Virus record (IMG/VR): IMGVR_UViG_3300005542_000007
Span: 64,001 to 128,000 of that record
Reading direction: 5' to 3' (one strand)
Source of the DNA: a virus
Length of the DNA stretch: 64,000 bases
Shown here: piece by piece, positions 37,836 to 61,541 of the stretch
Numbering within the stretch: the stretch's first letter is position 1
Layout: every line of letters starts with the position of its first letter
The notes under the pieces: generated by a model
Told to the model about the DNA's origin: nothing
Databases searched by the model: none
Seen by the model: the letters and a program-made list of their open reading frames with translations, nothing else
Position numbers and translations under genes: made by a program

Positions 37836-38008
37836 GCTTAAATGAATATCAAAAGAAACCCACACTTACCGCAGACGGTCTTCCATGGGTACAGCAATGT
37901 TTATATTGTGGCACGTCTGTAAATTTTATTAAGGACCCGAAGAGCAGTTGGCTTAGGGTAGGGGAATTTGTTCGCCATAAAAAATGCGATCCTCCCCCAG
38001 CGAAGTGA
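37832..38008 (+). CDS. Small Cys/His protein (not in ORF track)
   Basis: GGAGG RBS, GTG overlapping the SprT stop; CLYCG...RHKKC. Confidence 0.5.
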   Translation: MSLNEYQKKPTLTADGLPWVQQCLYCGTSVNFIKDPKSSWLRVGEFVRHKKCDPPPAK

Positions 38009-38199
38009 AATACAAAGATTCAGATATTTGTGTTTGTGGCCACCGCTTTGACGACCACGATTGTCACACGGATGGATATTGTTTGGAATGTCTATTCTCC
38101 GATGGTATTTATGGAGATGGCGTTGATGAATGTCAAGGTTTTAAGTTGGATAATTTAAAATACGTTGAAGACAAAGCGAAGAAAAGAAAGTTGCTATGA
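38005..38199 (+). CDS. DNL-tail Cys/His family member 1
   Basis: CVCGH..DH...DNLKYVEDKAKKRKLL; stop overlaps thyX ATG. Confidence 0.7.
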   Translation: MKYKDSDICVCGHRFDDHDCHTDGYCLECLFSDGIYGDGVDECQGFKLDNLKYVEDKAKKRKLL

Positions 38200-38843
38200 A
38201 ACCAGTTTTGGATAAAGGATTTGTGGAGTTGGTTGATTCAATGGGGTCGGACCTTTCCATTGTCAGAGCCGCCAGAGTATCTTACGGCAAAACTTCTTCA
38301 GATCCTGAGAAGGATAAGAAGCTGATTAAATTCCTTTTGGCTAACGACCATGGCACCCCCTTTGAGCACGTTGCCCTCACGTTCCATGTAAAAGCTCCAA
38401 TCTTTGTTGTTCGACAGTGGATGAGACACAGGATTGGAAATTCCTTCAACGAGATCAGCGGTCGGTATACAGAGATGAAAGAAGAATTTTATATTCCAAA
38501 GCAGCTTCGTACCCAGGTGGGAAAGAATTACCAGTACGAAGCTTTGATGGATAGTGTGAATTCTATTGAGAAGATTGAAGCTCATTACGAAGACACATTC
38601 AAATTATATAAGGAGCTTCTAGAATTGGGTGTGGCCAAAGAGCAAGCTCGTGCTATCCTTCCCTTGGGGCTCTATACAGAATTTTATTGGACTGTGAATG
38701 CCCGTTCTTTGATGCACTTTATATCTTTGCGTCTTGATCCTCATGCCCAGGAAGAGATTAGAGATTACGCTGTCGCTTTGCTCGAATATTTTAAAGAGGT
38801 TCTGCCTTGGACAGCAGAAGCATTTTTGGAGAAGAATAAGTGA
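38196..38843 (+). CDS. thyX: FAD-dependent thymidylate synthase
   Basis: AARVSY, HGTPFEH, RQWMRHR..SFNEISGRY, EQARAILP, HAQ.EIR. Confidence 0.97.
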   Translation: MKPVLDKGFVELVDSMGSDLSIVRAARVSYGKTSSDPEKDKKLIKFLLANDHGTPFEHVALTFHVKAPIFVVRQWMRHRIGNSFNEISGRYTEMKEEFYIPKQLRTQVGKNYQYEALMDSVNSIEKIEAHYEDTFKLYKELLELGVAKEQARAILPLGLYTEFYWTVNARSLMHFISLRLDPHAQEEIRDYAVALLEYFKEVLPWTAEAFLEKNK

Positions 38844-39070
38844 TGGAACTTCTGTGCAAATGTGGACACAGAGATACAATGCATTCTACATTAGAAGATG
38901 CACTTAAGTACCGCCAGAATATTGGTAGGTTATGCACTGAATATGCAGACTATCCTAATTACGATGCTCCTTATTTACACGCAACAGAAGAAATTTGTAT
39001 ATGTGATAACTTTATAGCAGATAATTTATTGTCGATTGAACGAGAAGTAAAGAAGAGAAATTTGGTATGA
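38840..39070 (+). CDS. DNL-tail Cys/His family member 2
   Basis: CKCGH...H...CIC...DNLLSIEREVKKRNLV. Confidence 0.7.
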   Translation: MMELLCKCGHRDTMHSTLEDALKYRQNIGRLCTEYADYPNYDAPYLHATEEICICDNFIADNLLSIEREVKKRNLV

Positions 39071-39255
39071 TGTGTTGGCGATGTGGGCATCAAAAGAGAG
39101 GACACGAAGCAGAACCAATAACTGAGTATAAGGAAGTATGTTGGGATTGTTGGTTTGATAAAGATACACTTGAAAAACGTTTAAAAGCTTGGTATAAATT
39201 TGAAGATAACTTGAGTTATATAGAACGCAAAGCTAAGGAAAAGAAACTGATTTGA
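39067..39255 (+). CDS. DNL-tail Cys/His family member 3
   Basis: CWRCGH...H...CWDC...DNLSYIERKAKEKKLI. Confidence 0.7.
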   Translation: MMCWRCGHQKRGHEAEPITEYKEVCWDCWFDKDTLEKRLKAWYKFEDNLSYIERKAKEKKLI

Positions 39256-39264
39256 GATTCATTC

Positions 39265-39336
39265 GCTCTCATGGTGTAACGGTTAGCACGGTACCCTGTC
39301 AAGGTATTAGCACGAGTTCGATTCTCGTTGGGAGCG
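39265..39336 (+). tRNA. tRNA-Asp(GTC)
   Basis: GCTCTCA/TGGGAGC acceptor, GTACC-CTGTCAA-GGTAT anticodon arm, TTCGATT T-loop; no encoded CCA. Confidence 0.9.
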
Positions 39337-39350
39337 GAAGAATCTTTAGA

Positions 39351-39425
39351 TGCTCCATAGCACAATGGTAGTGCAATCCCCTGTTAAGGGAAAGGTTCTA
39401 GGTTCGAATCCTAGTGGAGCAGCCA
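39351..39425 (+). tRNA. tRNA-Asn(GTT)
   Basis: TGCTCCA/TGGAGCA acceptor, CTGTTAA loop, TTCGAAT T-loop, GCCA end. Confidence 0.92.
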
Positions 39426-39443
39426 AGGATTTGGAAGATGATA

Positions 39444-39516
39444 GCCCGGATAGCTCAACTGGTAGAGCAACCCCTTTGTAAGGGGAAGGTTGTAGGTTCG
39501 ATTCCTATTCTGGGCT
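39444..39516 (+). tRNA. tRNA-Thr(TGT)
   Basis: GCCCGGA/TCTGGGC acceptor, GCTC/GAGC D-stem, TTTGTAA loop, TTCGATT T-loop. Confidence 0.88.
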
Positions 39517-39526
39517 GTGATCTTCT

Positions 39527-40921
39527 ATGATTAAAATCAATATCGAAAACGTTAAGTCGAATCTCGAAGGGGATCTTGACCCAAAAGTAATTTCTGCTAT
39601 ATATAATAAATTGGCAGCAGAGGTTCAGGGTTCTTTTTATGCCCGAAAACAAAACCCCTGGTGGGACGGAAAGAAACATTTCTTCACTAAGGTTGGTAAG
39701 GCTTTTATGACAGGTTTGATTTGGATGGTGCGTGAAACTCTAGACAAACACCACGTTCAGTACGAATATAACGACCTTAGAATAAAGCCCAACCCAAAGA
39801 AAGAATTGCCTTTGCACAACGTTACCCTTCGTGCCTACCAGCAATCCATTGTTGATGAGGCAGTAAAGAAAGAGCGAGGTGTGATTCGTGTTTCAACAGG
39901 TGGCGGTAAGACAACCATCATTGCAGCTTTAGTTGGGAAACTTAATTTCACAACCCTCATCCTGATTCATCGCCAGGAAATTATGGCGCAGATTAAAGAG
40001 ACACTTGAACGCATCCTTCAAATTCCCATTGGAACCGTCGGCGCTGGTACAGTCGATATTCAGCGTGTTACAATTGCTATGGTTCAAAGTGCCCATGAGT
40101 TGAAAGAGTTTCTACCCACTGTTGATGTTTTGATTGGAGATGAAGGACACCATGCTCCTGCTGAAACTTATTGGCAGGTTGCAGAAGCTTGTCCAAATGC
40201 GTATTACCGATATCTTTTTACTGGAAGTGACTGGCGGGAAGATAATATGGATATAATGTTGGATGGATTCGCCGCCAAGAAGTTCGTTGATATCAACGCT
40301 TCCAAGTTAATCGATGATGGTTGGTTGGTTCCACCAACAATTTACTTGTATGATTTTCAGCATGAACGTAAGAACCGCAAAGGGGTTCGTTATCCTAAAA
40401 TTTACAATGAAGAGGTGACGAACAATTTAAAAAGGAACCAGCTTGTTGTGGACCTTGCGATGAGGTCGGTGGAGGCTGGTAAGAGTACATTAATTTTAAT
40501 AAATTACATCGAACATGGGGAGAACCTTTTAACCCTTTTAAAAGCGGTTTACCCAGATATCGAGTTCATCCATGGGAGTACGGAAGTTGGAAAGAGACAG
40601 AAGGTGCTCCAGGAGTTCAAGGAAGGCACCAGGAAGCTCCTTTTAGCGTCAAATATCCTTGGAGAGGGTGTGGACATCCCAAAGCTGGAAGTACTCATTA
40701 CAGCAAGGGCTGAAGCCTCTACAATTGCAGCCTACCAAGCATTGGGAAGAACGCTCAGGCCGTCAGAGGGTAAAACCAAAGCAATTATAATTGATCTTTT
40801 CGATTCTGATTGTAAGTATTTAGAAAGTCATGCTTCAGCGCGTTTAAAAATCTACGCTTCGGAACCCAGGTATAAAATTGTTCCAGTGAGTGATTTGAAT
40901 GGGGTAAAATTCGATGCTTGA
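39527..40921 (+). CDS. SF2 DEAD/DEAH-box helicase (UvsW-like)
   Basis: LRAYQ, TGGGKT, DEGHH, EGVDIP, QALGRTLR. Confidence 0.9.
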   Translation: MIKINIENVKSNLEGDLDPKVISAIYNKLAAEVQGSFYARKQNPWWDGKKHFFTKVGKAFMTGLIWMVRETLDKHHVQYEYNDLRIKPNPKKELPLHNVTLRAYQQSIVDEAVKKERGVIRVSTGGGKTTIIAALVGKLNFTTLILIHRQEIMAQIKETLERILQIPIGTVGAGTVDIQRVTIAMVQSAHELKEFLPTVDVLIGDEGHHAPAETYWQVAEACPNAYYRYLFTGSDWREDNMDIMLDGFAAKKFVDINASKLIDDGWLVPPTIYLYDFQHERKNRKGVRYPKIYNEEVTNNLKRNQLVVDLAMRSVEAGKSTLILINYIEHGENLLTLLKAVYPDIEFIHGSTEVGKRQKVLQEFKEGTRKLLLASNILGEGVDIPKLEVLITARAEASTIAAYQALGRTLRPSEGKTKAIIIDLFDSDCKYLESHASARLKIYASEPRYKIVPVSDLNGVKFDA

Positions 40922-41273
40922 TCCAAAAGATGTGGAGAGTGTAGTAAATAAATCTGATATGGTTTTGGATGTTTTAAATAAGCGTAGCAAAGTGGTTTTT
41001 AAAGTTCCTCTGGTAAGAATCAGAGTAGCTTTTTTTGGGTACCAATATGTTTGGGGAGAACTGAATCGAGCTAAACTGACATCCGAACTTTTGGATTTGG
41101 GATTCGACAATCTTACCCTTACTTTAATTATTGAAGGTATTATTCATTTAAAAAGAAAAGTAACACAATGGAAGGAAAGTCCCAAACGTATAACCGATCC
41201 TCTTGAATTGGCAAGAATGGAAACACAAGTAAAAAAGCGTGTTCGTTTTAATACCGCTAGAGGTAAATTTTAA
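40914..41273 (+). CDS. Hypothetical protein
   Basis: 119-aa ORF coupled to helicase. Confidence 0.5.
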   Translation: MLDPKDVESVVNKSDMVLDVLNKRSKVVFKVPLVRIRVAFFGYQYVWGELNRAKLTSELLDLGFDNLTLTLIIEGIIHLKRKVTQWKESPKRITDPLELARMETQVKKRVRFNTARGKF

Positions 41274-41458
41274 TGGTTGAGTATTGCACCTGTGGGCATA
41301 CGAAAGAATGCCACGCAATACTTCATGGTCCTCACGGTATTAAGAATTTGGCGTTGTGTTTAAACTGTGTAAATAAAAATGAGATCGCCTCCCATTCTTT
41401 TAAACTTGACAATCTTAAATTAATCGAAGACTTAGCCAAAGAGAAAGGATTAGTATGA
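41273..41458 (+). CDS. DNL-tail Cys/His family member 4
   Basis: CTCGH...H...CLNC...DNLKLIEDLAKEKGLV. Confidence 0.7.
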   Translation: MVEYCTCGHTKECHAILHGPHGIKNLALCLNCVNKNEIASHSFKLDNLKLIEDLAKEKGLV

Positions 41459-42123: not shown

Positions 42124-42137
42124 CATCAAATTACCTC

Positions 42138-42166
42138 TTGACAAAATACCCTTTTCCTGCTAAACT
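42138..42166 (+). promoter_or_regulatory. sigma70-type early promoter, probable leaderless transcript
   Basis: TTGACA-17-TAAACT; GTG start 5 nt downstream. Confidence 0.7.
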
Positions 42167-42171
42167 AAAGC

Positions 42172-42333
42172 GTGGAAGAAAAGCTCTGCGAATTCTGCAA
42201 GCATAAAGCAAGTGATCACATCCTGGCGAATGCTGGTGCTTGTGGTGATGCAGAATGTTGCGGAAGTGAATACGAATTTTGCTATGAATGTGGAGAACGT
42301 TGCAGTGGCTTTGATTTAAAGTGGAGGTATTGA
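42172..42333 (+). CDS. Small Cys-rich protein (not in ORF track)
   Basis: MEEKLCEFCKHKASDH...CYECGERCSGF; related N-terminus to DNL family but no DNL tail. Confidence 0.5.
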   Translation: MEEKLCEFCKHKASDHILANAGACGDAECCGSEYEFCYECGERCSGFDLKWRY

Positions 42334-42335
42334 AA

Positions 42336-42509: not shown

Positions 42510-42510
42510 C

Positions 42511-42717: not shown

Positions 42718-42847
42718 ATATTCCTATTATTTCCAAATGGTTGAAGTCTCGTGAGAATAAAAAAGTTGTTGCGGCTTTCCTTAAATTGGAAATGAGAAAA
42801 GCTAGGATCATTGATTATAAAAGAAAATACAATATTAAAGATCCCAA

Positions 42848-43828: not shown

Positions 43829-43831
43829 AGA

Positions 43832-44155: not shown

Positions 44156-44163
44156 AATAACCC

Positions 44164-46011: not shown

Positions 46012-46524
46012 ATGAACAAGAAAACAGTAATGGCCATTCTGTTTACAAGTTTATTTGTTGCTTCTTTGGCTTCTGCCAATTGCGGCAGCAATGGTAATGG
46101 AAACGGAAACGGTTGTGGTGGTAGTACAGGTTCTGGATCACAAGGTCCCGCAGGTCCTCAAGGACCGCAGGGAAATTCTGGAAGCAACGGAACTAATGGT
46201 GCAAATGGTTTAAACGGAGTGGCTGGAGCAAATGGAACTAACGGAATAAATGGCATTAACGGAGTTGATGCTGTAAATCAATCTCGCCTACTTGGTGAGT
46301 TGGACCTTCGAATCTGGGATACAAAGCGCACGTCTTTCTATGCCTTTGATTCTTATGGGTTCGATGACGCTCCTGGACACGATGTATTATTGGATGGCCG
46401 TAATGCCTTTTATGGCGCTAAGTTTGTTGTTAAGCTTGGCTCCTCATATGAGGAACGAATGTTGGATAAGCAAGCGGCTCAGATTAAGGCGCTTGAAGCA
46501 GCCCTAGAAAAGTTGTCCAAGTAG
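46012..46524 (+). CDS. Secreted collagen-like repeat protein
   Basis: Signal peptide; GPAGPQGPQG and G-x-N triplets; C-terminal RIWD...YAFDSY...KLGSSYEE domain. Confidence 0.7.
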   Translation: MNKKTVMAILFTSLFVASLASANCGSNGNGNGNGCGGSTGSGSQGPAGPQGPQGNSGSNGTNGANGLNGVAGANGTNGINGINGVDAVNQSRLLGELDLRIWDTKRTSFYAFDSYGFDDAPGHDVLLDGRNAFYGAKFVVKLGSSYEERMLDKQAAQIKALEAALEKLSK

Positions 46525-47372: not shown

Positions 47373-47401
47373 TTGACAAACAACAAAGGGTCTGGTATAA
47401 T
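47373..47401 (+). promoter_or_regulatory. Consensus sigma70 promoter, probable leaderless transcript
   Basis: TTGACA-17-TATAAT with TG extension; ATG at 47409. Confidence 0.8.
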
Positions 47402-47775: not shown

Positions 47776-48180
47776 ATGGCTTCAAAAGAATATATGCGTA
47801 ATTGGTACTTAAAAAATAGGGAAAGAAATTTGGAGAAGGCCAAAATTTATCGTCAATCTTATCCAGGGGCTCAACGAATGAGAGAAAAACGTTTACGTGG
47901 GCAGACATTTATAAATGAAGCAAAAAATAAACCTTGTATGGATTGTGGTGTTCGTTATGCTTCTTGGATAATGCAGTTTGACCACAGAGATCCAACACAA
48001 AAGAGATTTACAATTTCATCTTCTACTTCCCGTTCCTTTGTAGATTTACAAATTGAAATGGATAAATGCGATGTTGTATGTGCTAATTGTCATGCAGAAA
48101 GAACGCATAAATTAGGTAAATTGTTTAGACCAGGAAGACCAGTCGCGGAACGGAAATATACTAAAAGGAGTCCAAAGTGA
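47776..48180 (+). mobile_element. HNH endonuclease
   Basis: PCMDCG...MQFDHRDP...KCDVVCANCH. Confidence 0.88.
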
Positions 48181-48803
48181 ATATTATCCCCACTGTGGTA
48201 GAAAAAATGACCGGAGCGGGGTCAATGGTTTCCTACGACCTCCTTTCCCGTTTGATGCAAGATAGAATTTTATTCGTAGGTGGCAATCACGGAGCCATAA
48301 GTTTGGACGATGCTAATATCCTAATTTCGCAGCTTCTTTATTTGGATTCGATTGACCCAGGTAAGAAAATTGAAATGTACATCAATTCTCCAGGTGGGGA
48401 GGTTTCAGCGGGCCTTGCTATTCTGGATACAATGAATCACATCCAAAGTCCTATCACGACAATCTGTTTAGGAATGGCAATGTCTTTTGGGGCTGTTCTA
48501 TTGAGTGCTGGGGAACCGGGAAAACGTTTTGCTCTTCCAAATGCCCGTATCATGATTCACCAACCATTGATTTCTGGAGGTGGGATATCGGGTCAGGCGA
48601 CTGACATTGAAATTGAAGCAAAGGAAATGACTCATTGCAAAACATCCCTTACAAAAATCCTCGCAGCCAACTGCAATCAGAAATACGAGAAGGTTTTGAA
48701 GGATTGCGAACGCAATTTTTATATGTCAGCAGAGGAAGCAAAAGAGTATGGGTTGATTGATAACGTGATTGTTCCGCACAGGAAATTGGATAAACACGTT
48801 TAG
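48177..48803 (+). CDS. clpP: ClpP protease proteolytic subunit
   Basis: YDLLSRL..DRIL, YINSPGG, GMAMSFG (Ser), RIMIHQP (His), GQATDI, MSAEEAKEYGLID; ERN replaces the usual ERD at the triad Asp. Confidence 0.93.
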   Translation: MNIIPTVVEKMTGAGSMVSYDLLSRLMQDRILFVGGNHGAISLDDANILISQLLYLDSIDPGKKIEMYINSPGGEVSAGLAILDTMNHIQSPITTICLGMAMSFGAVLLSAGEPGKRFALPNARIMIHQPLISGGGISGQATDIEIEAKEMTHCKTSLTKILAANCNQKYEKVLKDCERNFYMSAEEAKEYGLIDNVIVPHRKLDKHV

Positions 48804-48967: not shown

Positions 48968-49156
48968 ATGAAAACGTTGCGTAAACCAGCCATACCTTGC
49001 ATTTGTGGACACAGCCGGACATCTCATAAAGGTTGGGGACATTGGAAAGTATGTATGGACCCGCTTATTGATTTTGAAGAGTGTGAATGCGATAAATATG
49101 TTCCAGACAATCTCTCTTACATAGAGAAGCTTGCAAAAAAGAAAAAGCTAGTATGA
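48968..49156 (+). CDS. DNL-tail Cys/His family member 5
   Basis: CICGH...H...CEC...DNLSYIEKLAKKKKLV. Confidence 0.7.
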   Translation: MKTLRKPAIPCICGHSRTSHKGWGHWKVCMDPLIDFEECECDKYVPDNLSYIEKLAKKKKLV

Positions 49157-51592: not shown

Positions 51593-51790
51593 ATGAACAA
51601 GCGTGTTGCTTACCTCTACATTCTCACAGTATTCTTTGTTGTGGGATTTTATCTGTTTGGTAAGGGTGAAGTATTTGGAATAGAAAGATACAAACACAGC
51701 AAAAATATGTATGGAGCCCTCAAAGCAGCTTATCGAATGGGATACGAAGATGCTAAAGCAGGGCGTTCTATGGACTGGGATGGGGAATAA
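51593..51790 (+). CDS. Small membrane protein
   Basis: AGGAG RBS; N-terminal TM helix. Confidence 0.55.
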   Translation: MNKRVAYLYILTVFFVVGFYLFGKGEVFGIERYKHSKNMYGALKAAYRMGYEDAKAGRSMDWDGE

Positions 51791-52713
51791 TGAAAGACCT
51801 TATTATGTCGGATGACATTCCTCCCAAACCCATAGGAATTACGAATGGGACTATTACGCTAATGGAAGATGCTTCAGGACTTGCTAGTAAATTGGTTGTT
51901 CAATATCATTACAGCCATAAAACTACTCCCAATCATTTTTTAAGTTTTCTCGTTAATAAGGACCAGGGCGCTTTACAGTTGGGGTATGGTATTCGTCCTG
52001 CTATGAAGCATACCATTTCCAAAGATATTGTAAAGGGTAACTATTGCGAGTTTGATAGGATGTGGTTAAGTGATGTGATGCCAAAGAATAGTGAAAGCCA
52101 AGTTATCGCCTTGTTGTTGAGTTACTTAAAACAAGTACACCCGAGAATTAAATTCGTTATTACTTATGCGGATGAAAGTGTGGGTAATAAAGGTACAATT
52201 TATCAAGCTACCAATGCTATAGAACTTCCCAGTGTTCCAACGGATTTTTACTTGCTTCCTTCTGGTGAACGTATTCATCCTGTAACAATGTGGCATAGGC
52301 ACAAAACCAGAGCAAAAGCTTTTGTAGAGAAACAGTATCCCGGTATTAAACACATTAAAGGAACGTATAAACAACGACGTTATTTATACATTCTTAATAA
52401 CGGTTTGCGGAGAAAGTTTCAAGAGCGAAACGATGTGCTTCCAGCACATAAGGCGAAGTGCGATTCTTCGGCTCCGCTCCAATTTAAGCAAACTAAAAGT
52501 GACGTTATTTTTAAAGAGGTGTTTGATATGAAAAAATTCAATGAAGAATACCCAAAAGTGGTAGAAGGACTGCGGTTATTTTTAGGCGAAATTTACCTTG
52601 CCTTGGAAGAGGGCAAAACCATTTCTAAGGATAATTTTGCCGAGGGTTGCAAAATGCATTTAGGAAACTTAAAACAGTTTATTAGCGACAATGAAACCCA
52701 ACGCCCTAACTAA
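51790..52713 (+). CDS. mom: Mom-family (GNAT-like) DNA adenine modification enzyme
   Basis: YHYSH, CEFDRMWL....PKNSES, ITYAD...G..GTIYQATN: Mom family motifs. Confidence 0.82.
   Translation: MKDLIMSDDIPPKPIGITNGTITLMEDASGLASKLVVQYHYSHKTTPNHFLSFLVNKDQGALQLGYGIRPAMKHTISKDIVKGNYCEFDRMWLSDVMPKNSESQVIALLLSYLKQVHPRIKFVITYADESVGNKGTIYQATNAIELPSVPTDFYLLPSGERIHPVTMWHRHKTRAKAFVEKQYPGIKHIKGTYKQRRYLYILNNGLRRKFQERNDVLPAHKAKCDSSAPLQFKQTKSDVIFKEVFDMKKFNEEYPKVVEGLRLFLGEIYLALEEGKTISKDNFAEGCKMHLGNLKQFISDNETQRPN
52407..52481 (+). tRNA. Non-canonical tRNA-Gly(TCC)-like element embedded in mom CDS
   Basis: GCGGAG/CTCCGC acceptor + T73 + CCA; GTTT/AAAC D-stem; ATGTG-CTTCCAG-CACAT anticodon arm; CGAAG-TGCGATT-CTTCG T-arm. 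Confidence 0.8.
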
Positions 52714-53568: not shown

Positions 53569-54741
53569 TTGCGATCCCTCTACCTTTTAGCAATTCTCAT
53601 TTTCTTTAACCAGGGCATTGGCTCTCTTGCTGCCCAACCTCTCTACTACTTCCTTCGGGAAACACTTGGAATTGGCATTCCCACAATTATGATGCTTGGG
53701 GCACTTGCCAATCTTCCCTGGCTGATTAAACCCGTATGGGGATTCCTCAGTGATTCATTCAGCATTTTTGGATATCGTAGGAAGAGTTACATTATTTTGT
53801 TTTCTCTTTTAGGGACGGTTTCTTTTCTTCTTATCGGTCTTTCACCGTTTATTTCCCTTCCCGTTCTTGTCGGTCTGATGATTTTAGGGTCGATTGGAGA
53901 AGCGGGCGGGAATGTAGCCGTAAATGGTATGGGGGTAGAAGAGGGAAACAAGGATGGAACGACAGGTAAGTTTCAGAGTGTTTGTTGGGGAGCATTGGGT
54001 GTGGGTTCCGTTCTTACTGGAGTTACGGGCGGTTACATAGCGGAAAAAGCCTCATACCACCTTGCTTTCGTTATATTGGCTCTTTTCCCTATCCTGATTG
54101 CTGTAATGGCCCTCCGGCATCCAGAGCAGAAAGCAGAAGCTTCACATAAAGCTGTAGGACCCATAATTAAAGACTTTCTAATAAAATTAAAAAATAAGCA
54201 GATTTTCCTTTGCAGCTTGTTTTTATTTTTCCTTTGGTTCAGCCCCTCTTTTGGAACACCCCTTTTGGACAGGATGCGAACAGTGCTCCACATGTCAAAA
54301 GTATGGATTGGCTGGCTTGACACGATTGGGTCTGCTTGCGGAATTGTCGGAGCTATGGTATACTTTAAAGTGAGTAAGAGTATAAACATGAAGCGTTGGT
54401 TGTACTACGGAACGGTCTTAAGTGCTTTGGCTACGTTTGCGTATTTGTACCTGACACCCACCACTTTGTTTTGGTACACAATAGTGTTTGGGGTAGCTTC
54501 ACAGTTCATTCATTTGTTGATGCTGAATCTTATGGCGATGACTTGTCCAGAGGGAACGGAAGCAACCACGTATGCTTTGCTGTGTTCCCTTGTTAATTGT
54601 GCATCTTTCTTTTCTAATTTGGTTGGAGCTAAATGCTTCGCTCTATTTGGGTATAACGGGTTGATTATTATTTCAGGAGTGACAACGCTCATGTGTTTGG
54701 GATTCATTCCGTATCTTGAGGTAAACAAAAATGTCTTGTAA
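53569..54741 (+). CDS. MFS transporter, folate-biopterin (BT1/FBT) family
   Basis: About 12 TM segments; LPWLIKPVWGFLSD...FGYRRKSY, FQS.CWG, CPEG.EAT.YALL signatures. Confidence 0.85.
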   Translation: MRSLYLLAILIFFNQGIGSLAAQPLYYFLRETLGIGIPTIMMLGALANLPWLIKPVWGFLSDSFSIFGYRRKSYIILFSLLGTVSFLLIGLSPFISLPVLVGLMILGSIGEAGGNVAVNGMGVEEGNKDGTTGKFQSVCWGALGVGSVLTGVTGGYIAEKASYHLAFVILALFPILIAVMALRHPEQKAEASHKAVGPIIKDFLIKLKNKQIFLCSLFLFFLWFSPSFGTPLLDRMRTVLHMSKVWIGWLDTIGSACGIVGAMVYFKVSKSINMKRWLYYGTVLSALATFAYLYLTPTTLFWYTIVFGVASQFIHLLMLNLMAMTCPEGTEATTYALLCSLVNCASFFSNLVGAKCFALFGYNGLIIISGVTTLMCLGFIPYLEVNKNVL

Positions 54742-55023: not shown

Positions 55024-56415
55024 ATGCAAAATAAAGAACTCGAATATAATTTTCTGAAGCACGTTCTTACCGATCCCAAATGTGTCCTGAAGGTGCAGGA
55101 ACGTGGAGTTGACGAGAGCTTCTTCGATATACCGACAGTCTCTAAGCTCTTTGGAATCACCATCCGGTATTTCCAAGCTTACAGCGTACTTCCAACCTCT
55201 GCCGATGTTGAGTTGGTCCTTTCTTCCAGCAAATATACAGCAAACTTAGGCGATGATTTTAAAAAACAAATCGCGGTCCTCTTCTCCGAAGTGTCAATCC
55301 TTTCCAATCCTCCAAATTTTGATCTTCTCCTCGACGAGTTGATTCAGTACCACAAAACTAATTTGTTCCAGCAATCCTTGTTTGCTGCTACTGAAGCTCT
55401 CACCAACAACAGTACGGATAAAGCGATTGAAGCGGTTAAGAAGTCGCTTGCCTCCATCGATAAGATTTTTGCTTCCAATTATGATTTGAACGGCAGCATC
55501 GAAGATAATGCGAAACCCCTTTGGGACCAGTTTTTGGATGCAGAGCAACATCCAGAAAAGTACAAGGGAATCAACGTAGGGTTTGATGGATTTGACAAAC
55601 TCACTGGTGGATTGGTTGGTGGGACAGTTACGTTAATTATCGGCGGATGGAAAAGTGCAAAATCCGTTCTCTCAATGAATATGGCGCACAACGTTGCGAC
55701 AAGTGATTTTGCAACTAAGAGGGTTGGCAAGCGAGTGTTGTACCATGTTAACGAGGGGCGGTTCGAGTTGAACCAAGCTCGTCTTGCCTCCTGCGCCACT
55801 GGAATCAATTATACCAGATTGAGCAGAGCTTTGAGGGGCCGCGTTATCTTTACCCAGGCAGAAAGAGATTTGTACGAAAAGTATTTAAAGGGAGATGAAT
55901 TTAAAGAGTTGCGTCACAACCTCATTATCGATTCAGCACCTCCTATCGTTAGTTCCGCTCGTTATGTTGGAGCAAAGATTAAAGAACACAAACCAGAGTT
56001 TGTTATCATCGACTACTTGGGGCTTTTAGGAACGGACCAGAGAGTGAAAGACGATAATGAGAAATTGGGTAAAGTGTCATCTGAAATTGTAGGGTTGGCA
56101 ATTGAACACAACGTACCTATTATCCTGATTGCTCACGTCAATAGGAAAGCGAAACAAGCAGCCGATAAAAATAACGAGGATTATGACAGCGAAGATATGG
56201 GATTGAGTATCGAACCGATTAAGAACGTGGACGCTGTTGTATCCTGGAGGATTGAAGACCCGGAACAATTTAAGCAAACACACAAGGGCATTGGAACGTT
56301 GGCAATTAGAGATGCCAGGAACGTAGAGACAGGAACGTGTCAGCTTTTGGTTGACACAAATTCGATGAGTATAAAGAACATCATTTATGGTGGGATGGGT
56401 GGGCAGCAGCCGTGA
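55024..56415 (+). CDS. Replicative helicase, DnaB-like
   Basis: GF.GFDKLTGGL..G...IIGG...AKS, VIIDYLGLL, IAHVNR, I..VD.V. Confidence 0.82.
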   Translation: MQNKELEYNFLKHVLTDPKCVLKVQERGVDESFFDIPTVSKLFGITIRYFQAYSVLPTSADVELVLSSSKYTANLGDDFKKQIAVLFSEVSILSNPPNFDLLLDELIQYHKTNLFQQSLFAATEALTNNSTDKAIEAVKKSLASIDKIFASNYDLNGSIEDNAKPLWDQFLDAEQHPEKYKGINVGFDGFDKLTGGLVGGTVTLIIGGWKSAKSVLSMNMAHNVATSDFATKRVGKRVLYHVNEGRFELNQARLASCATGINYTRLSRALRGRVIFTQAERDLYEKYLKGDEFKELRHNLIIDSAPPIVSSARYVGAKIKEHKPEFVIIDYLGLLGTDQRVKDDNEKLGKVSSEIVGLAIEHNVPIILIAHVNRKAKQAADKNNEDYDSEDMGLSIEPIKNVDAVVSWRIEDPEQFKQTHKGIGTLAIRDARNVETGTCQLLVDTNSMSIKNIIYGGMGGQQP

Positions 56416-56573
56416 GTGATAAAGACAGACCCTGCAAAAACTGTGGAAGACCTGGATATTACCCCGTACATGACATTGTAGGTAGATGCCCAAATCGCAA
56501 TTTTTCATATTACGCACCAAAAGACAATCTCGATTACGTCGAGTGGCTTGCAGAGAAGAGAGGATTGGTATGA
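56412..56573 (+). CDS. DNL-tail Cys/His family member 6 (not in ORF track)
   Basis: MSDKDRPCKNCG...H...C...DNLDYVEWLAEKRGLV, 53 aa. Confidence 0.7.
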   Translation: MSDKDRPCKNCGRPGYYPVHDIVGRCPNRNFSYYAPKDNLDYVEWLAEKRGLV

Positions 56574-56686: not shown

Positions 56687-56690
56687 TAGA

Positions 56691-57482
56691 ATGAGTTTAC
56701 TTAAACACATTTACAATTGGCGTAGGGATCTTCCAGACTGGAGAGATAAACGATACAGGGAGCATCGTTTGCTTGGAGCGTTGCCTCCCCCACCTCCAAT
56801 AGTGGATTTGCGTCAACAATGCAGCCCAGTGGAAGACCAAGGACAATTGGGTTCCTGTACATCCTTTGCTTGGGCAGGAATGCTTGAGTTTCTTGAATTG
56901 CAAGCTTTAAATAATAAAGTTGCTTCTCCTGAAATCCTCACCCCAACTTATACGCCCTTCTCCCATCTTTTCATTTATTACAATGAACGCTTTATTGATG
57001 GGGATGTGAGTCAAGATGGTGGATCACAATTGAGGACAGGAGCACAGGCTGTTGCAACTTATGGAGACTGTAGTGAACCCACTTGGCCGTATCAGATTGA
57101 ACAGGTATTTGTTAAACCCTCTGATGTTGCTTTTGCTGAAGCAGCTAATCACAAAATCAGCGTCTACTCCAGGCTGGAATCGGCTGAGGATTACAAAGCG
57201 TGTTTAGCTGAAGGATTTCCTTTTGTATTTGGTGCGACCTTATACGAGAGTTTTGAAAGTGGAGTTATAGCTTCCACAGGTATTGTTCCAATGCCTTCAA
57301 TGAACGAAAGTGACATTGGTGGACACGCAATCCTTTGTGTTGGGTACGATGAAACAAAGCAGCATTATATTGTGCGTAATTCTTGGGGAACGGGCTGGGG
57401 CGATAAAGGGTATTGTTACTTTCCAATGGAATATATGGAAAACCCAGACCTTTGTTCAGATATGTGGACGGCAAGGAAATAG
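56691..57482 (+). CDS. C1A papain-family cysteine peptidase
   Basis: VEDQGQLGSCTSF, GGHAILCVGY, RNSWG..WG.KGY. Confidence 0.93.
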   Translation: MSLLKHIYNWRRDLPDWRDKRYREHRLLGALPPPPPIVDLRQQCSPVEDQGQLGSCTSFAWAGMLEFLELQALNNKVASPEILTPTYTPFSHLFIYYNERFIDGDVSQDGGSQLRTGAQAVATYGDCSEPTWPYQIEQVFVKPSDVAFAEAANHKISVYSRLESAEDYKACLAEGFPFVFGATLYESFESGVIASTGIVPMPSMNESDIGGHAILCVGYDETKQHYIVRNSWGTGWGDKGYCYFPMEYMENPDLCSDMWTARK

Positions 57483-57483
57483 A

Positions 57484-57681
57484 ATGGAAGATTGGAAACT
57501 TCCTTGCACTTGTAAGCACAATAAAAATGCCCACCGAGGATTTCGTAGTATATATGGAGAATTTCATCGTACAGGTTGTAGACACAAATATTCTGATTTT
57601 TCAAGTTGCATTTGTTTTGGATTCAAACTCGACAACCTCAAACTAATAGAAGACTTAGCGAAAGAAAAAGGTTTGGTATGA
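57484..57681 (+). CDS. DNL-tail Cys/His family member 7
   Basis: PCTCKH...H...CIC...DNLKLIEDLAKEKGLV. Confidence 0.7.
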   Translation: MEDWKLPCTCKHNKNAHRGFRSIYGEFHRTGCRHKYSDFSSCICFGFKLDNLKLIEDLAKEKGLV

Positions 57682-57842
57682 CCGATTATTGCATGTGTGG
57701 GCACATGCAGTACAAACATCAAAAAGCTGAACGTTTTAACACAAATGGATTGTTTTATTGTTTTGATTGCGACTGTATGAAGTACAAACTCGACAATCTA
57801 AGATTTATTGAAGACGAAGCGAAAGAACGAGGGCTTGTATGA
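57678..57842 (+). CDS. DNL-tail Cys/His family member 8
   Basis: CMCGH...H...CDC...DNLRFIEDEAKERGLV. Confidence 0.7.
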   Translation: MTDYCMCGHMQYKHQKAERFNTNGLFYCFDCDCMKYKLDNLRFIEDEAKERGLV

Positions 57843-58357
57843 AAACCTGCCTTGAAGTAATTGAAGAATATGGAATCGAACTTAAAGATTTGGGAAAAGA
57901 CTTAGCTCGTGGATACTGTAAAATCCATAATGACGTTGCTAGTGGAAAGCCTCAGTTCACCTACTATAAAAATAACGATTCTTGGTTCTGCTTCCGTTGT
58001 GGGATAGGTGGAGATGCAATACGACTTGTTGCCGAGATGGAACACATTTCGTATGCCGAAGCCAAGAAACGATTAGTAGGAACAGAAGCCGAACAATTAG
58101 AAGAGTTGAGGGAGACGCTTGATAGTTTGGATGTTGACATCAGCCAAAGCTACAACCTCCAGCTTAATTTAACTCTCCGTCCTAAGTTCCGTGATCTTCT
58201 TTATAAATACCCAGAGCATCAGCAAGATATTTTAAACGCGATGAAAGCTCTCGATGAAGAGTTGAAGAATAAAATTAATTTTACTAAGATGGGCGAATTA
58301 TTTGAACGATTTAAATTATTCAGTGAGCAGATAGTTGCAGAATCAAGCAGGGTATGA
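57839..58357 (+). CDS. CHC2 zinc-finger protein (primase Zn-binding domain-like)
   Basis: GYCKIH.D...P.F...WFCFRCG.GGDAI..V...E..S..EA. Confidence 0.85.
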   Translation: MKTCLEVIEEYGIELKDLGKDLARGYCKIHNDVASGKPQFTYYKNNDSWFCFRCGIGGDAIRLVAEMEHISYAEAKKRLVGTEAEQLEELRETLDSLDVDISQSYNLQLNLTLRPKFRDLLYKYPEHQQDILNAMKALDEELKNKINFTKMGELFERFKLFSEQIVAESSRV

Positions 58358-58363
58358 TATAGT
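58335..58363 (+). promoter_or_regulatory. Putative sigma70 promoter, leaderless
   Basis: TTGCAG-17-TATAGT with TG extension; ATG 6 nt downstream. Confidence 0.55.
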
Positions 58364-58369
58364 TGGTGT

Positions 58370-58573
58370 ATGGAAGAATTAGGTAGAAGAGATTGGGAAC
58401 TTCCTTGTATTTGTGGGCATATAAATAAAGAGCATCGACATATGAACAGGGAAGCAGATCGATGGAAATATACAACTAAAGTTTGTTGGAGCAAGTATTG
58501 TATTTGCTTTGAATTCAAACTCGATAATCTCGCATATGTCGAGCAGGTAGCCAGAGCTAGAGGATTGGTATGA
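58370..58573 (+). CDS. DNL-tail Cys/His family member 9
   Basis: PCICGH...H...CIC...DNLAYVEQVARARGLV. Confidence 0.7.
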   Translation: MEELGRRDWELPCICGHINKEHRHMNREADRWKYTTKVCWSKYCICFEFKLDNLAYVEQVARARGLV

Positions 58574-58767
58574 AAGAATTTAAGATTCAAAAACGCTACA
58601 ATAAAAGCGTGAAGCTTTCTGACGGCTCCTACCACAGTTTTGGAACAGAGCTTGAAACGACTGTGAATGTATCCAGTGGTGAAGAGCTTTTAGCTGAAAG
58701 CAATAAGCTGTTTGGACAATGCAAGTTTCTTGTTGAAGAAGATATTAAAAATACATTGGGACAATAA
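58570..58767 (+). CDS. Hypothetical protein
   Basis: 65 aa, coupled to member 9. Confidence 0.5.
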   Translation: MKEFKIQKRYNKSVKLSDGSYHSFGTELETTVNVSSGEELLAESNKLFGQCKFLVEEDIKNTLGQ

Positions 58768-59067
58768 ATGTCGAACCTTAAAAAGTGGACACAGAAAGAC
58801 GGTACGAAGATTCGAATCAAAGATATGACGGATAAGCATTTGGTTAACGCCGCGAAGATGCTTTTAAGAATGGCAGAAGCAGAAAAGAATGAAACATTGG
58901 GTTACTATCCATCTTTTAATCCAGATTCAATGGCAGCATATTACTCAGAACAATCATGGGATAATTTAAATGAGATGGATATCCAAGAGTATGCCGAAAT
59001 GGAATACCCAATATTTAACGATTTGCTATGGGAAGTGTATAGGAGAAAATTGGAGAATAAAATATGA
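58768..59067 (+). CDS. Conserved phage hypothetical protein
   Basis: W..KDG..I.IKDM...HL.NA motif. Confidence 0.55.
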   Translation: MSNLKKWTQKDGTKIRIKDMTDKHLVNAAKMLLRMAEAEKNETLGYYPSFNPDSMAAYYSEQSWDNLNEMDIQEYAEMEYPIFNDLLWEVYRRKLENKI

Positions 59068-59594
59068 AACTTTTAACTGAAGCTGAAATGCAGGAACGTC
59101 TTGGAGAAGTGGCTACGTCCAGGGTTGCCCTTGACCCAGACCCAACAGTTAATGGCGTACTTTCACTCAATAAGAAGCTGGCTGAAATTCAATTGTTTAA
59201 AGACCGTTTAAGCTATTTGATTACGGAAGCGTTGCACAATTCAAATACAGCCGAGGTGTTATTTGAAGAGCTTAAGGGCGAACACGACCGCGCCTTGGAA
59301 GTACTTCTCGCAACTGATTCGACCGTGCAAGCTCAAAAATCTGCCGAGATGCGAAACGCCACCGCGAAGCAAAAGATCGCTGAACAGGTTCTCAGACTTC
59401 ATCACGCTGAAATTGATTTGCTTAAAGCTCAGGGATATTTGAAAGTTCTCCAGTCAATTCATTTGAATCTGGAAAGTTGCAACTCTAATTTGTCAAGGCA
59501 AATTACCGTGATCCAGCTTGCGACTGGAATGGGCGAAATACAAAGATCTGCAAACGGAATACAACCAGCAGGACAGATAACAAAAACGTATTAA
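59064..59594 (+). CDS. Coiled-coil protein (possibly recombination mediator)
   Basis: All-helical 176 aa upstream of SSB-like and recA genes. Confidence 0.45.
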   Translation: MKLLTEAEMQERLGEVATSRVALDPDPTVNGVLSLNKKLAEIQLFKDRLSYLITEALHNSNTAEVLFEELKGEHDRALEVLLATDSTVQAQKSAEMRNATAKQKIAEQVLRLHHAEIDLLKAQGYLKVLQSIHLNLESCNSNLSRQITVIQLATGMGEIQRSANGIQPAGQITKTY

Positions 59595-59595
59595 G

Positions 59596-59787
59596 ATGCC
59601 AAGGCTAAAAGGTAGCAAAGATAAGAAACCGAGAAAGAGTAGAGGTAAAGATAAGTTGTGCTCAAAAGGACACGATATATCTGTTGTAGGGCGTAACTCA
59701 AGTGGGCATTGTAATGAATGCCATAAGGAATATTACCAGAAACGTTGGGAATTTATTAAGCAGAATTTTAATGAAAAGCAACCTTAA
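59596..59787 (+). CDS. Small basic Zn-binding protein
   Basis: PRLKGSKDKKPRK; CSKGH...CNEC. Confidence 0.5.
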   Translation: MPRLKGSKDKKPRKSRGKDKLCSKGHDISVVGRNSSGHCNECHKEYYQKRWEFIKQNFNEKQP

Positions 59788-59826
59788 AAGTATAATAAAA
59801 TGTGGTATTATTAGGACGTACTATAC
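59782..59826 (+). promoter_or_regulatory. Second copy of the 45-nt element
   Basis: 40/45 identity to 12421-12465. Confidence 0.6.
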
Positions 59827-59858
59827 GTCCCACTATTATAATTTTAAGGAGAACTAAA

Positions 59859-60701
59859 ATGGGTATGTTATTAAATATGGTTGGACAAAGATACGTTAGA
59901 TTGGCAGTTAAAGCTTTCAGTCATTTGGATGATAATGGCAATTCATACTGGCTTTGCAGGTGTAATTGTGGAACAGAAAAGATTATTCAGCGTAGTAATT
60001 TGTTGGTTGGTAACGCCAAATCCTGTGGGTGTTTAGGCCGAGAAATCCATTCCAAACTTCACAAAGTCCATGGAATGTCTCACACGCCAGAACACAAGGC
60101 TTGGGGTTCTATGATTGAACGTTGTTATGATGTAAATAATCCACGGTATAAGGATTACGGTGGAAGAGGAATTACAATTTGTAAAAAGTGGTTGGAGCCG
60201 CAAGGAATTGGATTTATGAACTTTTACGAAGACATTGGGCCTAAGCCGTCAAAAAGACATAGTTTGGATAGGAAAGATAACGAGGGTAACTACGAACCTG
60301 GGAATGTTAAATGGTCAACTCCAAAACAACAAGCTAGAAATACACGAATGTCTACACAAACCAAAAATAAAGCGGAGCATAAGTATCAGAGAAGTCGTTT
60401 AATGTCGTTTTTAAATAAGTTGGTAAGTGAAAAAGTGTTTCCTCAATTGTTTGAAGAAAACTTTGGAATTTCGGTAAGCGGGTTCAAACAATACATCGAA
60501 TCCAAATTTCAACCAGGAATGACTTGGAAGAATCATGGTAGAGGTGTTGGAAAATGGCAGTTCGATCACATCATCGGTTGTAACAATTTTGATTTGAGCA
60601 AAGAAGAAGATCGTAAGACTTGTTTCAATTATACAAATTTCCAGCCCTTGTGGTGGGAAGAACACAAACATAAAAATAAGAAATTACTTAAAATACAATA
60701 A
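59859..60701 (+). mobile_element. Homing endonuclease with two HNH-type domains
   Basis: AAGGAG RBS; WLCRCNCG, YGGRGI, SLDRKDN.GNYEPGN; then YIESKF..MTW.N.G..WQFDHI...NYTNFQPLW. Confidence 0.82.
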
Positions 60702-60719
60702 CTAAGGAGAACAACAGTC

Positions 60720-61370
60720 ATGCTTTCAACAATTACAAAAGGTGAGTATAAGAACGATCCAATTCCCGACAATGTTTATTTGGCGAAGCTTTTAAACGTT
60801 AAGGAGAAGCCAGCCCCGGAAGCGCACCCAGATTGGTACCCTTCTTTAAGCTGGACATTCGAAATCCTTCAAGACCCATTCAAGAAACGCCGAGCGTGGG
60901 GCAAAACGCCGACCTCATGGATTGCCGGAAAGAAACTTGACAATTGGTTGGTTACATGTGGAATTAACGTGGCCAAAGGTACAAGCCTTAAGATTGAAGA
61001 TCTGAAAGACATTTACGTGAAGATCTTGGTTAAAAGCAAACCATACGATGATCCACAAACGAAAGAGAAGAAAACGTTCCAATCAGTAATTGAGCTTCTT
61101 CCTTTGGATAGTTTGGATCAGATTAAGATCAGAGAGTTGGCAATGACAGCACCTCCTTCCGCTGTAGGAATGCAGCCAGTTGCTTCACAGCAACCTACTA
61201 TTCCTGTGTCCCAGACCACAACAGGATTTGTGGTTCCAATGACAACCTCTTCCCCCGTATCTAATGTTGTTCCTGGGCCAGTAAGTGCTCCGGCTACTTT
61301 TTCACCACAACCGACATTTACACCAGCGCCCCAGGTTACAGGTACGCCGAGTAGAACGATACCGTTCTAA
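60720..61370 (+). CDS. Putative single-stranded DNA-binding protein
   Basis: OB-like N-domain (IPDNVYLAKL...WTFEI), low-complexity tail ending IPF. Confidence 0.6.
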   Translation: MLSTITKGEYKNDPIPDNVYLAKLLNVKEKPAPEAHPDWYPSLSWTFEILQDPFKKRRAWGKTPTSWIAGKKLDNWLVTCGINVAKGTSLKIEDLKDIYVKILVKSKPYDDPQTKEKKTFQSVIELLPLDSLDQIKIRELAMTAPPSAVGMQPVASQQPTIPVSQTTTGFVVPMTTSSPVSNVVPGPVSAPATFSPQPTFTPAPQVTGTPSRTIPF

Positions 61371-61373
61371 CGA

Positions 61374-61541
61374 ATGGAAGAGAAGTGCATTTGTAAGCAT
61401 TTAAGAAGCAGCCATTGGTGGCATTACAAAGAAGACGGTAGAACGAAAAAGCCTTGCTTATCTTGGTGTCCTTGCAAAGGATTTGCTTTAGATAACTTGG
61501 AATATATTGAACGATTAGCCAAGGAGCATAATTTAATATGA
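61374..61541 (+). CDS. DNL-tail Cys/His family member 10 (not in ORF track)
   Basis: MEEKCICKH...H...CPC...DNLEYIERLAKEHNLI, 55 aa; stop overlaps recA ATG. Confidence 0.7.
   Translation: MEEKCICKHLRSSHWWHYKEDGRTKKPCLSWCPCKGFALDNLEYIERLAKEHNLI

Follow-up and report, generated by a model that had tools for sequence, protein, structure and literature searches.

Cys/His microprotein genes of the window

The analysed window is a stretch of 64,000 nucleotides (positions 64,001 to 128,000) from IMG/VR virus record IMGVR_UViG_3300005542_000007. The record spans 141,877 bp, or 74% of the phage genome, and gene absences were judged on that part. Ten short ORFs on the + strand of the window were identified as real genes of a large unannotated family of Cys/His microproteins of 50-75 residues. 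These genes and the features discussed with them are as follows.

38005..38199, + strand: member 1, 64 aa; GTG start overlaps the upstream stop (ATG at 37984 is an alternative start); tail encoded by the final 16 codons; TGA overlaps the thyX ATG at 38196
38840..39070, + strand: member 2, 76 aa; TGA overlaps the member 3 ATG
39067..39255, + strand: member 3, 62 aa; first Cys pair is a CWRC variant
41273..41458, + strand: member 4, 61 aa; TGA overlaps the start (ATG at 41455) of a metallophosphatase gene
47373..47401, + strand: perfect promoter TTGACA-17-TATAAT with TGn, preceding the HNH, ClpP and member 5 genes
48177..48803, + strand: canonical ClpP, 208 aa; candidate part of the reader machinery
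48968..49156, + strand: member 5, 62 aa; follows the ClpP gene; TGA overlaps the start (ATG at 49153) of a phosphoribosyltransferase-like gene
56412..56573, + strand: member 6, 53 aa; GTG start overlaps the stop of a DnaB-like helicase gene
57484..57681, + strand: member 7, 65 aa; shares its last 19 residues with member 4
57678..57842, + strand: member 8, 54 aa; structure predicted; TGA overlaps the start (ATG at 57839) of a primase zinc-ribbon gene
58370..58573, + strand: member 9, 67 aa; ortholog in the close relative L062 has an identical 17-residue tail
61374..61541, + strand: member 10, 55 aa; TGA overlaps the ATG of a UvsX-like recombinase gene at 61538
63852..64000, + strand: start of a classic-clade AAA ATPase gene, running off the window (whole gene L005:852-2249, 465 aa)

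All ten ORFs translate as predicted and end in DNLxx[IV]Exx[AV]xxxxL[VIL]-stop, with exactly 16 residues from the Asp to the stop in each, as described in the first-pass annotation. When the ten are aligned, the columns C, C, C, D, N, L, E and L are invariant. The ligands are arranged as C-x(1-2)-C-x-H-x(3-4)-H followed by a second Cys pair, with a hypervariable middle and a C-terminal amphipathic helix, and the microproteins probably bind zinc. Each head contains a median of 8 Cys plus His; member 6 has a reduced set (3 Cys and 1 His) and is eroded in L062. The pI of the family proteins ranges from 4.6 to 9.2, so that head chemistry is varied. Tail genes sit in the non-structural arms, amid replication and nucleotide-metabolism genes. 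tRNA-Asp, -Asn and -Thr come after member 3.

A scan of the whole record for the core motif returned 33 ORFs, all on the + strand, with one short match on the - strand and 0-2 matches in each of 20 shuffled records, far above what chance would give. The sister phage G001 contained 34 motif ORFs, again all on the + strand. In these unbiased scans the distance from Asp to stop was exactly 16 residues in 26 of the 33 record ORFs and 20 of the 34 in G001; the remaining tails had 13-27 residues or the motif was internal. The fixed length first reported for the ten is thus invariable among them and elsewhere a rule only. The initial count of ten was likewise sound for those members but too low, the record encoding 21 Zn-type (Cys/His) members and ∼12 tail bearers with other heads. 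Tails are encoded by ∼1 in 7 genes (∼15%) of this uncultured ∼180-kb soil phage.

The tail consensus is aromatic-x-L/P followed by DNLxYIExLAKx(R/K)xL(I/V)-COOH. Across 288 non-redundant 16-residue tails, conservation was 98% for A10, 81% for K11, 97% for R/K13, 96% for L15 and 90% for I/V16, and the free positions (4, 8 and 12) lie on one helix face. The family forms at least 1,265 clusters in metagenomes, with no match in cultured phages or bacterial genomes, and belongs to a clade of uncultured soil phages of ∼180 kb. No characterised domain matched it: with members and consensus-like relatives nothing was better than E 0.14 in Pfam, 0.038 in PHROGs or 0.059 in NCBIfam, a profile search of PDB sequences gave a best E of 0.32, and Foldseek returned nothing at E ≤ 0.001. 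No earlier description of this shared 16-residue helix was found.

Hypervariable heads on a portable helix

The heads diverge fast. Best reciprocal matches to G001 were 51.5% identical for tail genes (n = 15), below other genes (71.6%, n = 117) and other small genes (71.0%, n = 27); Zn heads alone had a median identity of 35%, and tails were 69% identical. The early description of the heads as Cys/His-rich and hypervariable is supported. Since some of the best reciprocal matches are non-syntenic, part of the head divergence may stem from paralogs having replaced one another and not from orthologs that evolve fast. Copy number of the family also differs among close relatives.

Selection on the tail acts on the peptide, as had been argued from members 4 and 7, whose shared last 19 residues differ at 10 synonymous positions when compared by codon table. 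Member 9 and its ortholog in L062 retain 17 identical tail residues despite ∼10 synonymous changes, while their flanks are ∼90% identical and the middle of the head is unalignable. At the D, N, L, I/V, E and A codons of the tail, positions 1 and 2 carry ∼2 bits, and position 3 is nearly free (0.1-0.5 bits at L3, I/V6 and A10).

Other bearers of the same tail are an all-helical family of ∼100 aa, a second family of ∼100-150 aa whose ending is related, and several singletons, among them a protein whose head has 279 aa. Orthologs of the non-zinc bearers retain the tail. An AlphaFold2 model of one 103-aa non-zinc bearer shows a confident helical head, a Pro-rich linker at lower confidence (∼60-66), one further helix and then the tail helix; in the non-zinc bearers generally, a Pro/Gly/Ser-rich stretch with pLDDT of ∼60 lies between the helical head and the tail region. 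The helix is portable and self-contained, and the modular architecture proposed at the outset stands as one helix on unrelated heads. As the same residues are conserved whatever the head, they point to an outside partner or to self-association and not to packing on the head.

The preferred explanation, to which we give slightly less than an even chance, is that the tail helix is a docking handle read by one shared phage or host partner. Such a reader, a conserved phage or host machine, would grip the conserved helix faces and so engage all bearers. These probably include early proteins; early expression would be consistent with two consensus promoters, that at 47373, whose pattern also matches in G001, and a perfect host-type consensus immediately upstream of another family member (L001:8162). 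The variable heads would choose different targets in host takeover or counter-defence.

The strongest competing explanation, itself unlikely, is that the helix is a structural or self-association element which completes the zinc fold or pairs the proteins, with no outside reader. In the zinc microproteins the second Cys pair lies ∼5 residues ahead of the tail, and the predicted model of member 8 is compact (pTM 0.55) and confident, its helical tail being the most confident part (pLDDT 93); because of this proximity and this model, the tail helix may belong to the zinc fold itself. Most helix positions are conserved, amounting to about three quarters of the helix surface. A simple peptide that binds in a groove would need less, and such conservation would also fit a helix that is buried or self-associates. 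Hydrophobic residues at positions -2, 0, 3, 6, 10, 15 and 16 could make a small core, and in the non-zinc bearer model the tail is paired with the preceding helix. The same residues are nevertheless kept on unrelated folds, in one case via the low-confidence Pro-rich linker. The invariant polar residues D1, N2, E7, K11 and R/K13 would be unneeded by a simple hydrophobic core or coiled coil, and stable coiled coils are usually built from helices longer than these ∼12 residues.

Candidate readers and the end of the tail

Of the possible components of a reader for the docking handle, the phage ClpP suggested as a hub in the first-pass annotation is indeed a canonical ClpP, 63-66% identical to cellular ClpPs, but the peptidase adjoining members 6-8 is papain-like (Pfam Peptidase_C1) and is a different enzyme from ClpP. 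The AAA ATPase is a speculative reader candidate; its N-domain of ∼190 aa belongs to no known family and it has no aromatic pore loop. Peptide reading by a vWA-MoxR pair was not supported: PF13519 was unmatched in the record (74% complete), and the only AAA_5 match was below cut-off and inside the classic AAA (PF00004) protein.

That the tail is instead a built-in degradation tag, by which a Clp-type protease (phage ClpP with a host unfoldase) clears its bearers together and times host takeover, is improbable. The ssrA tag and the C-terminal RRKKAI degron of MuA are recognition tags for ClpXP (PMC8138137). Like these, which a single protease machine reads, the phage tails are short C-terminal peptides on unrelated proteins, and their ending (basic-basic-x-L-I/V, two non-polar residues after basic ones) resembles RRKKAI. 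The phage encodes ClpP, the ClpP and member 5 genes lie behind the same consensus promoter, and both phage clades with the family also carry ClpP. Known ClpX tags, however, require few terminal residues and no 16-residue capped helix; degrons of the ssrA or MuA class have their determinants in the last 3-6 residues and a free non-polar C-terminus. In the phage motif the core is a capped helix that lies 10-16 residues before the C-terminus. The C-terminal residues (L15, I/V16 and the K/R before them) are kept in this clade, but related clades keep the helix start only (DNLxYLE): in phages further removed that share the gene order, the tails read DN[LI]xYL[E/Q]xKYE... and end in varied polar sequences. 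Even within this clade, where extensions run to 1-9 residues overall, some tails have 7-9 further charged residues after L-I. A search of the record, which covers 74% of the genome, found no ATPase of the ClpX type. Conservation of the helix start, and not of the extreme C-terminus, is better explained by a docking helix than by a classical C-terminal degron.

The 3' end of the tail gene has a second role, which the first-pass annotation did not mention. All 26 fixed-length tails in the record stop at a TGA within [A/G/T]TGA, the overlapping start of the next ORF, and in 24 of the 26 this start opens an ORF of at least 38 aa. A stop/start overlap of this type was present in only 21 of 168 other + strand genes, which stop at TAA (104), TGA (45) or TAG (19). 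The codons for R13-G14 supply GAGG or AGGA 5-6 bases before the next start, so the end of the tail coding sequence would provide both a ribosome-binding site and an overlapping start codon. The tail end is dual coding: its last codons specify a conserved peptide and also hold the signals that start translation of the following gene. This overlap partly explains why the length is fixed, why TGA is universal and why Gly is preferred at position 14, and the overlapping signals can account for the fixed end and for some of the conservation at positions 12-16.

It is very improbable that the whole tail originates in this gene junction, its DNA serving only the next gene's ribosome-binding site and start or its nascent peptide acting in the ribosome at the stop. 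The overlap speaks for such an origin. Against it, the codons of the most conserved residues are free in their third position, which places the constraint on amino acids, and the D, N, L, I and E codons, 30-48 bases ahead of the start, are too distant to form part of a ribosome-binding site. At metagenome loci, 24 of 117 fixed-length tails end in TAA or TAG, and extended tails and internal motif copies occur. A ribosome-arrest or termination-control peptide of the TnaC or SecM type was rejected on the same stops, extensions and internal copies, although the distance is fixed in most copies.

A signal for packaging into the capsid and injection with the DNA, as for the internal proteins of T4, is likewise very improbable: one 85-aa motif protein, conserved in relatives, does lie in the head module beside a ClpP-like prohead protease, but the T4 capsid-targeting signal is N-terminal, sits on late-expressed proteins and is cleaved off by the prohead protease, the tail is C-terminal with no cleavage motif seen before it, and the genes occupy non-structural arms behind host-type consensus promoters, so a T4-type targeting sequence was rejected.

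Comparison with known systems

If the tail is a docking handle, ∼15% of the phage genes would form one functional system missed by annotation pipelines, with a compact natural design of variable binder and constant handle in bacterial viruses, and identification of the reader would give a role to dozens of orphan genes together.

By size, by ∼8 Cys/His ligands and by predicted beta-hairpins with one helix, the microproteins are similar to the cross-brace domains of RING, U-box and PHD type, a fold with two metal sites. The 10 best matches in VIA-align were all RING, SP-RING or U-box domains with Z of only 2.1-2.5, and the C-x-C-x-H-x3-4-H ligand spacing differs from that of RING, to which there is no sequence match.

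Portable peptides that join unrelated proteins to one hub are known from the clamp-binding C-termini of T4 (gp43, gp33 and gp55) and the bacterial beta-clamp motif QL[SD]LF. N-L-x-Y-I of the tail loosely echoes Q-L-x-L-F. A clamp-binding peptide (QL[SD]LF or (S/T)LDFL(F/Y)) was nonetheless rejected, as an invariant Asn takes the place of the required Gln, and the clamp motif is extended while the tail segment has a helical prediction. Neither PF00712 nor PF02916 matched the record (74% complete).

In the Vps4 MIT/MIM1 and p97 N-domain/VIM pairs, many different proteins use one amphipathic helix, frequently their extreme C-terminus, to dock on a classic AAA ATPase by way of its N-domain. The phage likewise encodes a classic AAA ATPase with an uncharacterised N-domain; the sequence of the tail motif differs and the phage enzyme lacks the aromatic pore loop. 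The adaptor SspB carries a tethered C-terminal tail that binds ClpX, at the N-domain of this unfoldase, and a flexible linker of this type before the tail is predicted in the non-zinc bearers; the zinc microproteins, with their last Cys pair ∼5 residues from the tail, lack one.

A docking handle would have a parallel in the ankyrin-repeat proteins of poxviruses, in which a C-terminal PRANC/F-box-like domain of ∼40-50 residues binds host Skp1 in eukaryotes. A rather unlikely extension of the docking explanation is that the phage holds a library of 20-30 hypervariable zinc-finger binders, plugged by the constant tail into a single machine such as a protease or AAA remodeller, with each head handing over a different host or defence protein; this would be the bacterial-virus counterpart of the poxvirus ankyrin/F-box receptors. 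The phage module differs in being a 16-residue helix on tiny Cys/His heads in a bacterial host. Common to both are a large DNA virus, dozens of paralogs and a constant C-terminal module, which in the poxvirus proteins brings variable target-binding heads into one machine.

Composition and distribution of the tail family

All ten small Cys/His ORFs of the window (members 1-10 in order, 38005-61541, + strand) translate as described, each with a head followed by a 16-residue C-terminal tail with the family consensus DNLxYIExLAKx(R/K)xL(I/V), in which D1 is the first residue. The invariant columns of their alignment are C, C, C, D, N, L, E and L. Translation and alignment bore out the ten Cys/His ORFs of the first-pass annotation, and the family count for the window is exactly ten. 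An HMM built from the ten members was run against the whole IMG/VR virus record (linear, 141,877 bp, about 74% complete), of which the window is bases 64001-128000, and returned 21 full-length members together with larger ORFs matching by the tail alone. A scan of the record for the core motif found 33 ORFs on the + strand and one short, chance-like match on the - strand; 20 shuffles gave 0-2. The distance from D1 to the stop was exactly 16 residues in 26/33 of these ORFs, the others having a tail of 17-27 residues or the motif internal to a 161-aa protein, and in 20/34 motif ORFs of the sister phage G001, both figures coming from unbiased whole-record scans. The fixed length of 16 residues, claimed for the family, therefore holds for all ten members but not throughout either record.

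Motif genes lie in two non-structural arms (genome 3-22 kb and 102-134 kb), which flank the structural block at 20-100 kb. An 85-aa head-module protein (L002:1721-1978, another stretch of the same record; genome 21721-21978) adjoins the ClpP-like prohead protease and carries the motif with an extension, …ARGLGAQVKPSQP; G001 has this protein at 71% identity, and other relatives encode it too.

A family profile was searched exhaustively against 1.84 billion representative proteins, giving 1,265 matches at E <= 0.001, of which 116 reached E <= 1e-10. Among 183 fetched sequences, C-x(1-2)-C-x-H-x(3-4)-H was present in 178 and a second Cys pair in 173, with a median of 8 Cys+His per head. A 16-residue tail was present in 173/183, a biased figure, since tails of this kind went into the profile. 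The first-pass reading had been made to depend on the lack of a match to a characterised domain; no family in Pfam, PHROGs or NCBIfam matched the tail proteins, no solved structure matched by sequence, and Foldseek of the model against the PDB gave nothing at E <= 0.001. A wide VIA-align search gave a best Z of 2.5 or less, and only unnamed viral clusters of the ESM Atlas were matched, by features and by shape. Cultured phages gave no match by megablast of 24 kb or tblastn of member 4, nor did the tail pattern match representative genomes of 185,579 prokaryote species. A literature search for a description of such a family found nothing relevant. Related loci were sought in IMG/VR and metagenome contigs by an IUPAC pattern scan of the tail, which was carried by 3 IMG/VR contigs and 61 metagenome-contig stretches. 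One sequencing run containing the phage DNA was listed, a DNA run labelled soil metagenome that may be its origin; no RNA run was listed. The original observation is confirmed and extended; from the sequences, we infer a docking function for the tail and a common partner, or reader, that would grip it.

A portable helix under selection as a peptide

The tail ending is also carried by two all-helical proteins, both about 100 aa long and beginning M(S)NLHKLF, by several single other proteins of the genome and by many more in the metagenome loci, one with a head of 279 aa. A related ending, DNLxYIExLxxLKxY, closes a family of about 100-150 aa whose members are not Cys/His microproteins. Orthologs of the non-zinc bearers in related phages retain the tail. 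The modular architecture proposed at first reading, a constant tail on varied heads, is supported by these unrelated heads. In the AlphaFold2 model of member 8 (131-sequence alignment; mean pLDDT 82.5) the tail is helical with a pLDDT of 93. The model of a 103-aa non-zinc bearer begins with a helical head predicted with confidence (residues 1-59); next come a Pro-rich linker with lower pLDDT (about 60-66), one further helix and the tail helix.

Across 288 non-redundant tails the only free positions were 4, 8 and 12, which form one helix face. A10, K11, R/K13, L15 and I/V16 were conserved at 81-98%, an aromatic residue occurred at -2 in 83%, and L or P at position 0 in 74%. This pattern would fit a short helix capped at both ends, with D1 as the N-cap and Gly, Asn or Lys at position 14. 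The sequence makes a membrane-targeting helix unlikely: polar residues occupy the invariant positions, the hydrophobic face is small and the charges nearly cancel out.

The claim that selection acts on the tail peptide held at the codon level. At D, N, L, I/V, E and A the first and second codon positions hardly vary, and the third holds just 0.1-0.5 bits at L3, I/V6 and A10. Members 4 and 7 have 19 terminal residues in common with 10 synonymous differences. Member 9 and its counterpart in the close relative L062 (helicase 95%, ClpP 97% identical) agree in 17 tail residues despite some 10 synonymous changes; their heads are unalignable in the middle, and the flanks share about 90% identity. The free third codon positions rule out conservation of the tail as a DNA or RNA element.

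The heads diverge fast. In best reciprocal matches to G001, tail genes were 51.5% identical (n=15) versus 71.6% for other genes (n=117) and 71.0% for other genes of 110 aa or less (n=27); for the zinc type, heads alone were 35% identical and tails 69%. Some of these matches are non-syntenic, so part of the head divergence may reflect paralog turnover. Copy number at a site also varies between close relatives: the primase gene is preceded by two members in this phage and by a single one in L062, where member 6 is eroded. The predicted pI of the members spans 4.6 to 9.2, which makes generic DNA-binding proteins unlikely.

Genomic setting and overlap with downstream genes

The neighbours of the tail genes belong to replication and nucleotide metabolism, and include two helicases, thyX, NAMPT, a nucleotidyltransferase, a Mom-like protein, a primase zinc ribbon, UvsX, SbcCD-like proteins and a family A polymerase.

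Features in and near the tail-gene arms (L001 and L005 are other stretches of the same record)
L001:8162-8190, + strand: perfect sigma-70-type promoter, TTGACA-17-TGnTATAAT, nine bases upstream of a member
window 39264-39517: tRNA-Asp(GTC), tRNA-Asn(GTT) and tRNA-Thr(TGT), directly after member 3
window 47373-47401, + strand: perfect sigma-70-type promoter, TTGACA-17-TGnTATAAT, ahead of the HNH, ClpP and member 5 genes
window 48177-48803: canonical ClpP
window 51790-52713: Mom-like gene
window 56691-57482: papain-family (Peptidase_C1) cysteine protease, between the DnaB-like helicase and the primase
window 63852-64000, continuing L005:852-2249: classic-clade AAA ATPase, 465 aa, in the recombination module

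The exact promoter pattern has a chance expectation of 0.07 in the window and also has 2 matches in G001; these consensus matches are consistent with early transcription by the host polymerase.

The fixed-length tails overlap the start of the next gene. Their TGA stop lies within [A/G/T]TGA in 26/26, and in 24/26 the start codon that overlaps it begins a reading frame of at least 38 aa, among them thyX, a metallophosphatase, the primase zinc ribbon, a UvsX-like recombinase and another member. Stops of other + strand genes were TAA in 104, TGA in 45 and TAG in 19, and such an overlap occurred in only 21/168. The R13-G14 codons supply GAGG or AGGA 5-6 bases ahead of the next start, and Gly14, and perhaps the fixed end of the tail, are therefore partly shaped by translation signals. 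Such signals cannot account for the residues D, N, L, I and E: their codons are 30-48 bases upstream, and the third positions there are free. The TGA overlap is not obligatory, the stop being TAA or TAG in 24/117 such tails of the metagenome loci and in 3/20 in G001.

Several further features of the arms were recorded. thyX is probably present as two paralogs, at L001:13740-14363 and window 38196-38843, either of which is 27-29% identical to relatives of the other. Both have a gene with the tail immediately ahead of them, its TGA overlapping the start of thyX. ARAGORN found only the three clustered tRNAs in the whole window, with none inside the Mom-like gene; Asp and Asn are also the (near-)invariant first two tail residues, on about 33 genes, which may be coincidence. 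A 390-aa gene (window 53569-54741), 83-89% identical in relatives, has an identical Logan contig copy recorded with MFS_1 and BT1 (folate-biopterin transporter) Pfam matches; the replication arm of a phage is an unusual place for a membrane transporter. A 170-aa ORF of the replication arm (window 46012-46524) matches collagen-like repeat regions of tail-fibre PHROGs and is probably a low-complexity Gly-X-Y repeat.

Candidate readers and distant relatives

The phage ClpP had been named as a possible hub. The phage does encode a canonical ClpP (48177-48803), and its head module contains a second gene resembling ClpP. The peptidase encoded between members 6 and 7 is of the papain type. Co-folding member 8 with two phage ClpP copies, with alignments supplied for both proteins, gave no answer (score 0.00) and weighs neither way. 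ClpX-type AAA_2, T4 clamp, beta clamp and vWA proteins were not found in the record, which is about 74% complete. The papain-like peptidase is 56% identical in L062, where its neighbour genes are 87-95% identical; it was set aside as a reader, being absent from the corresponding place in the distant relatives L081 and L082.

The AAA ATPase is a lead only, drawn by analogy with the MIT-MIM and p97-VIM helices. Its Cdc48/AFG2-like module (E 1e-41) has Walker and arginine-finger motifs; the N-domain, about 190 aa long, matches no family and is common to only 18 proteins, all from this phage group. It is conserved alongside the tail family in both clades. Two points speak against it as a reader: it has no aromatic pore loop 1, and its C-terminus, FDLDNLDRW, echoes the tail start in this phage only and is not kept in relatives.

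The two more distant phages keep the gene order, with ClpP 68-71% and the AAA ATPase N-domain 34-36% identical. Their zinc family bears another tail, DN[LI]xYL[E/Q]xKYE..., of variable length. A mixed variant of the tail occurs in L057. Since these tails keep the helix start, the universal core would be the helix start and not the protein end, a point against a classical C-terminal degron and in favour of docking through the helix. Beyond the helix start the tail is uniform within a clade and different between clades, as expected if it tracked a reader that likewise changes between clades. In L081 and L082 the same replication core is surrounded by Thg1-like, RF-1-domain, PTH2, Macro and pyrophosphatase genes, a translation and RNA-repair set absent from the corresponding part of the window.

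The closest analogies to the tail family are viral families in which the heads vary and one C-terminal module stays constant, and, in bacterial proteolysis, tags and tethered tails.
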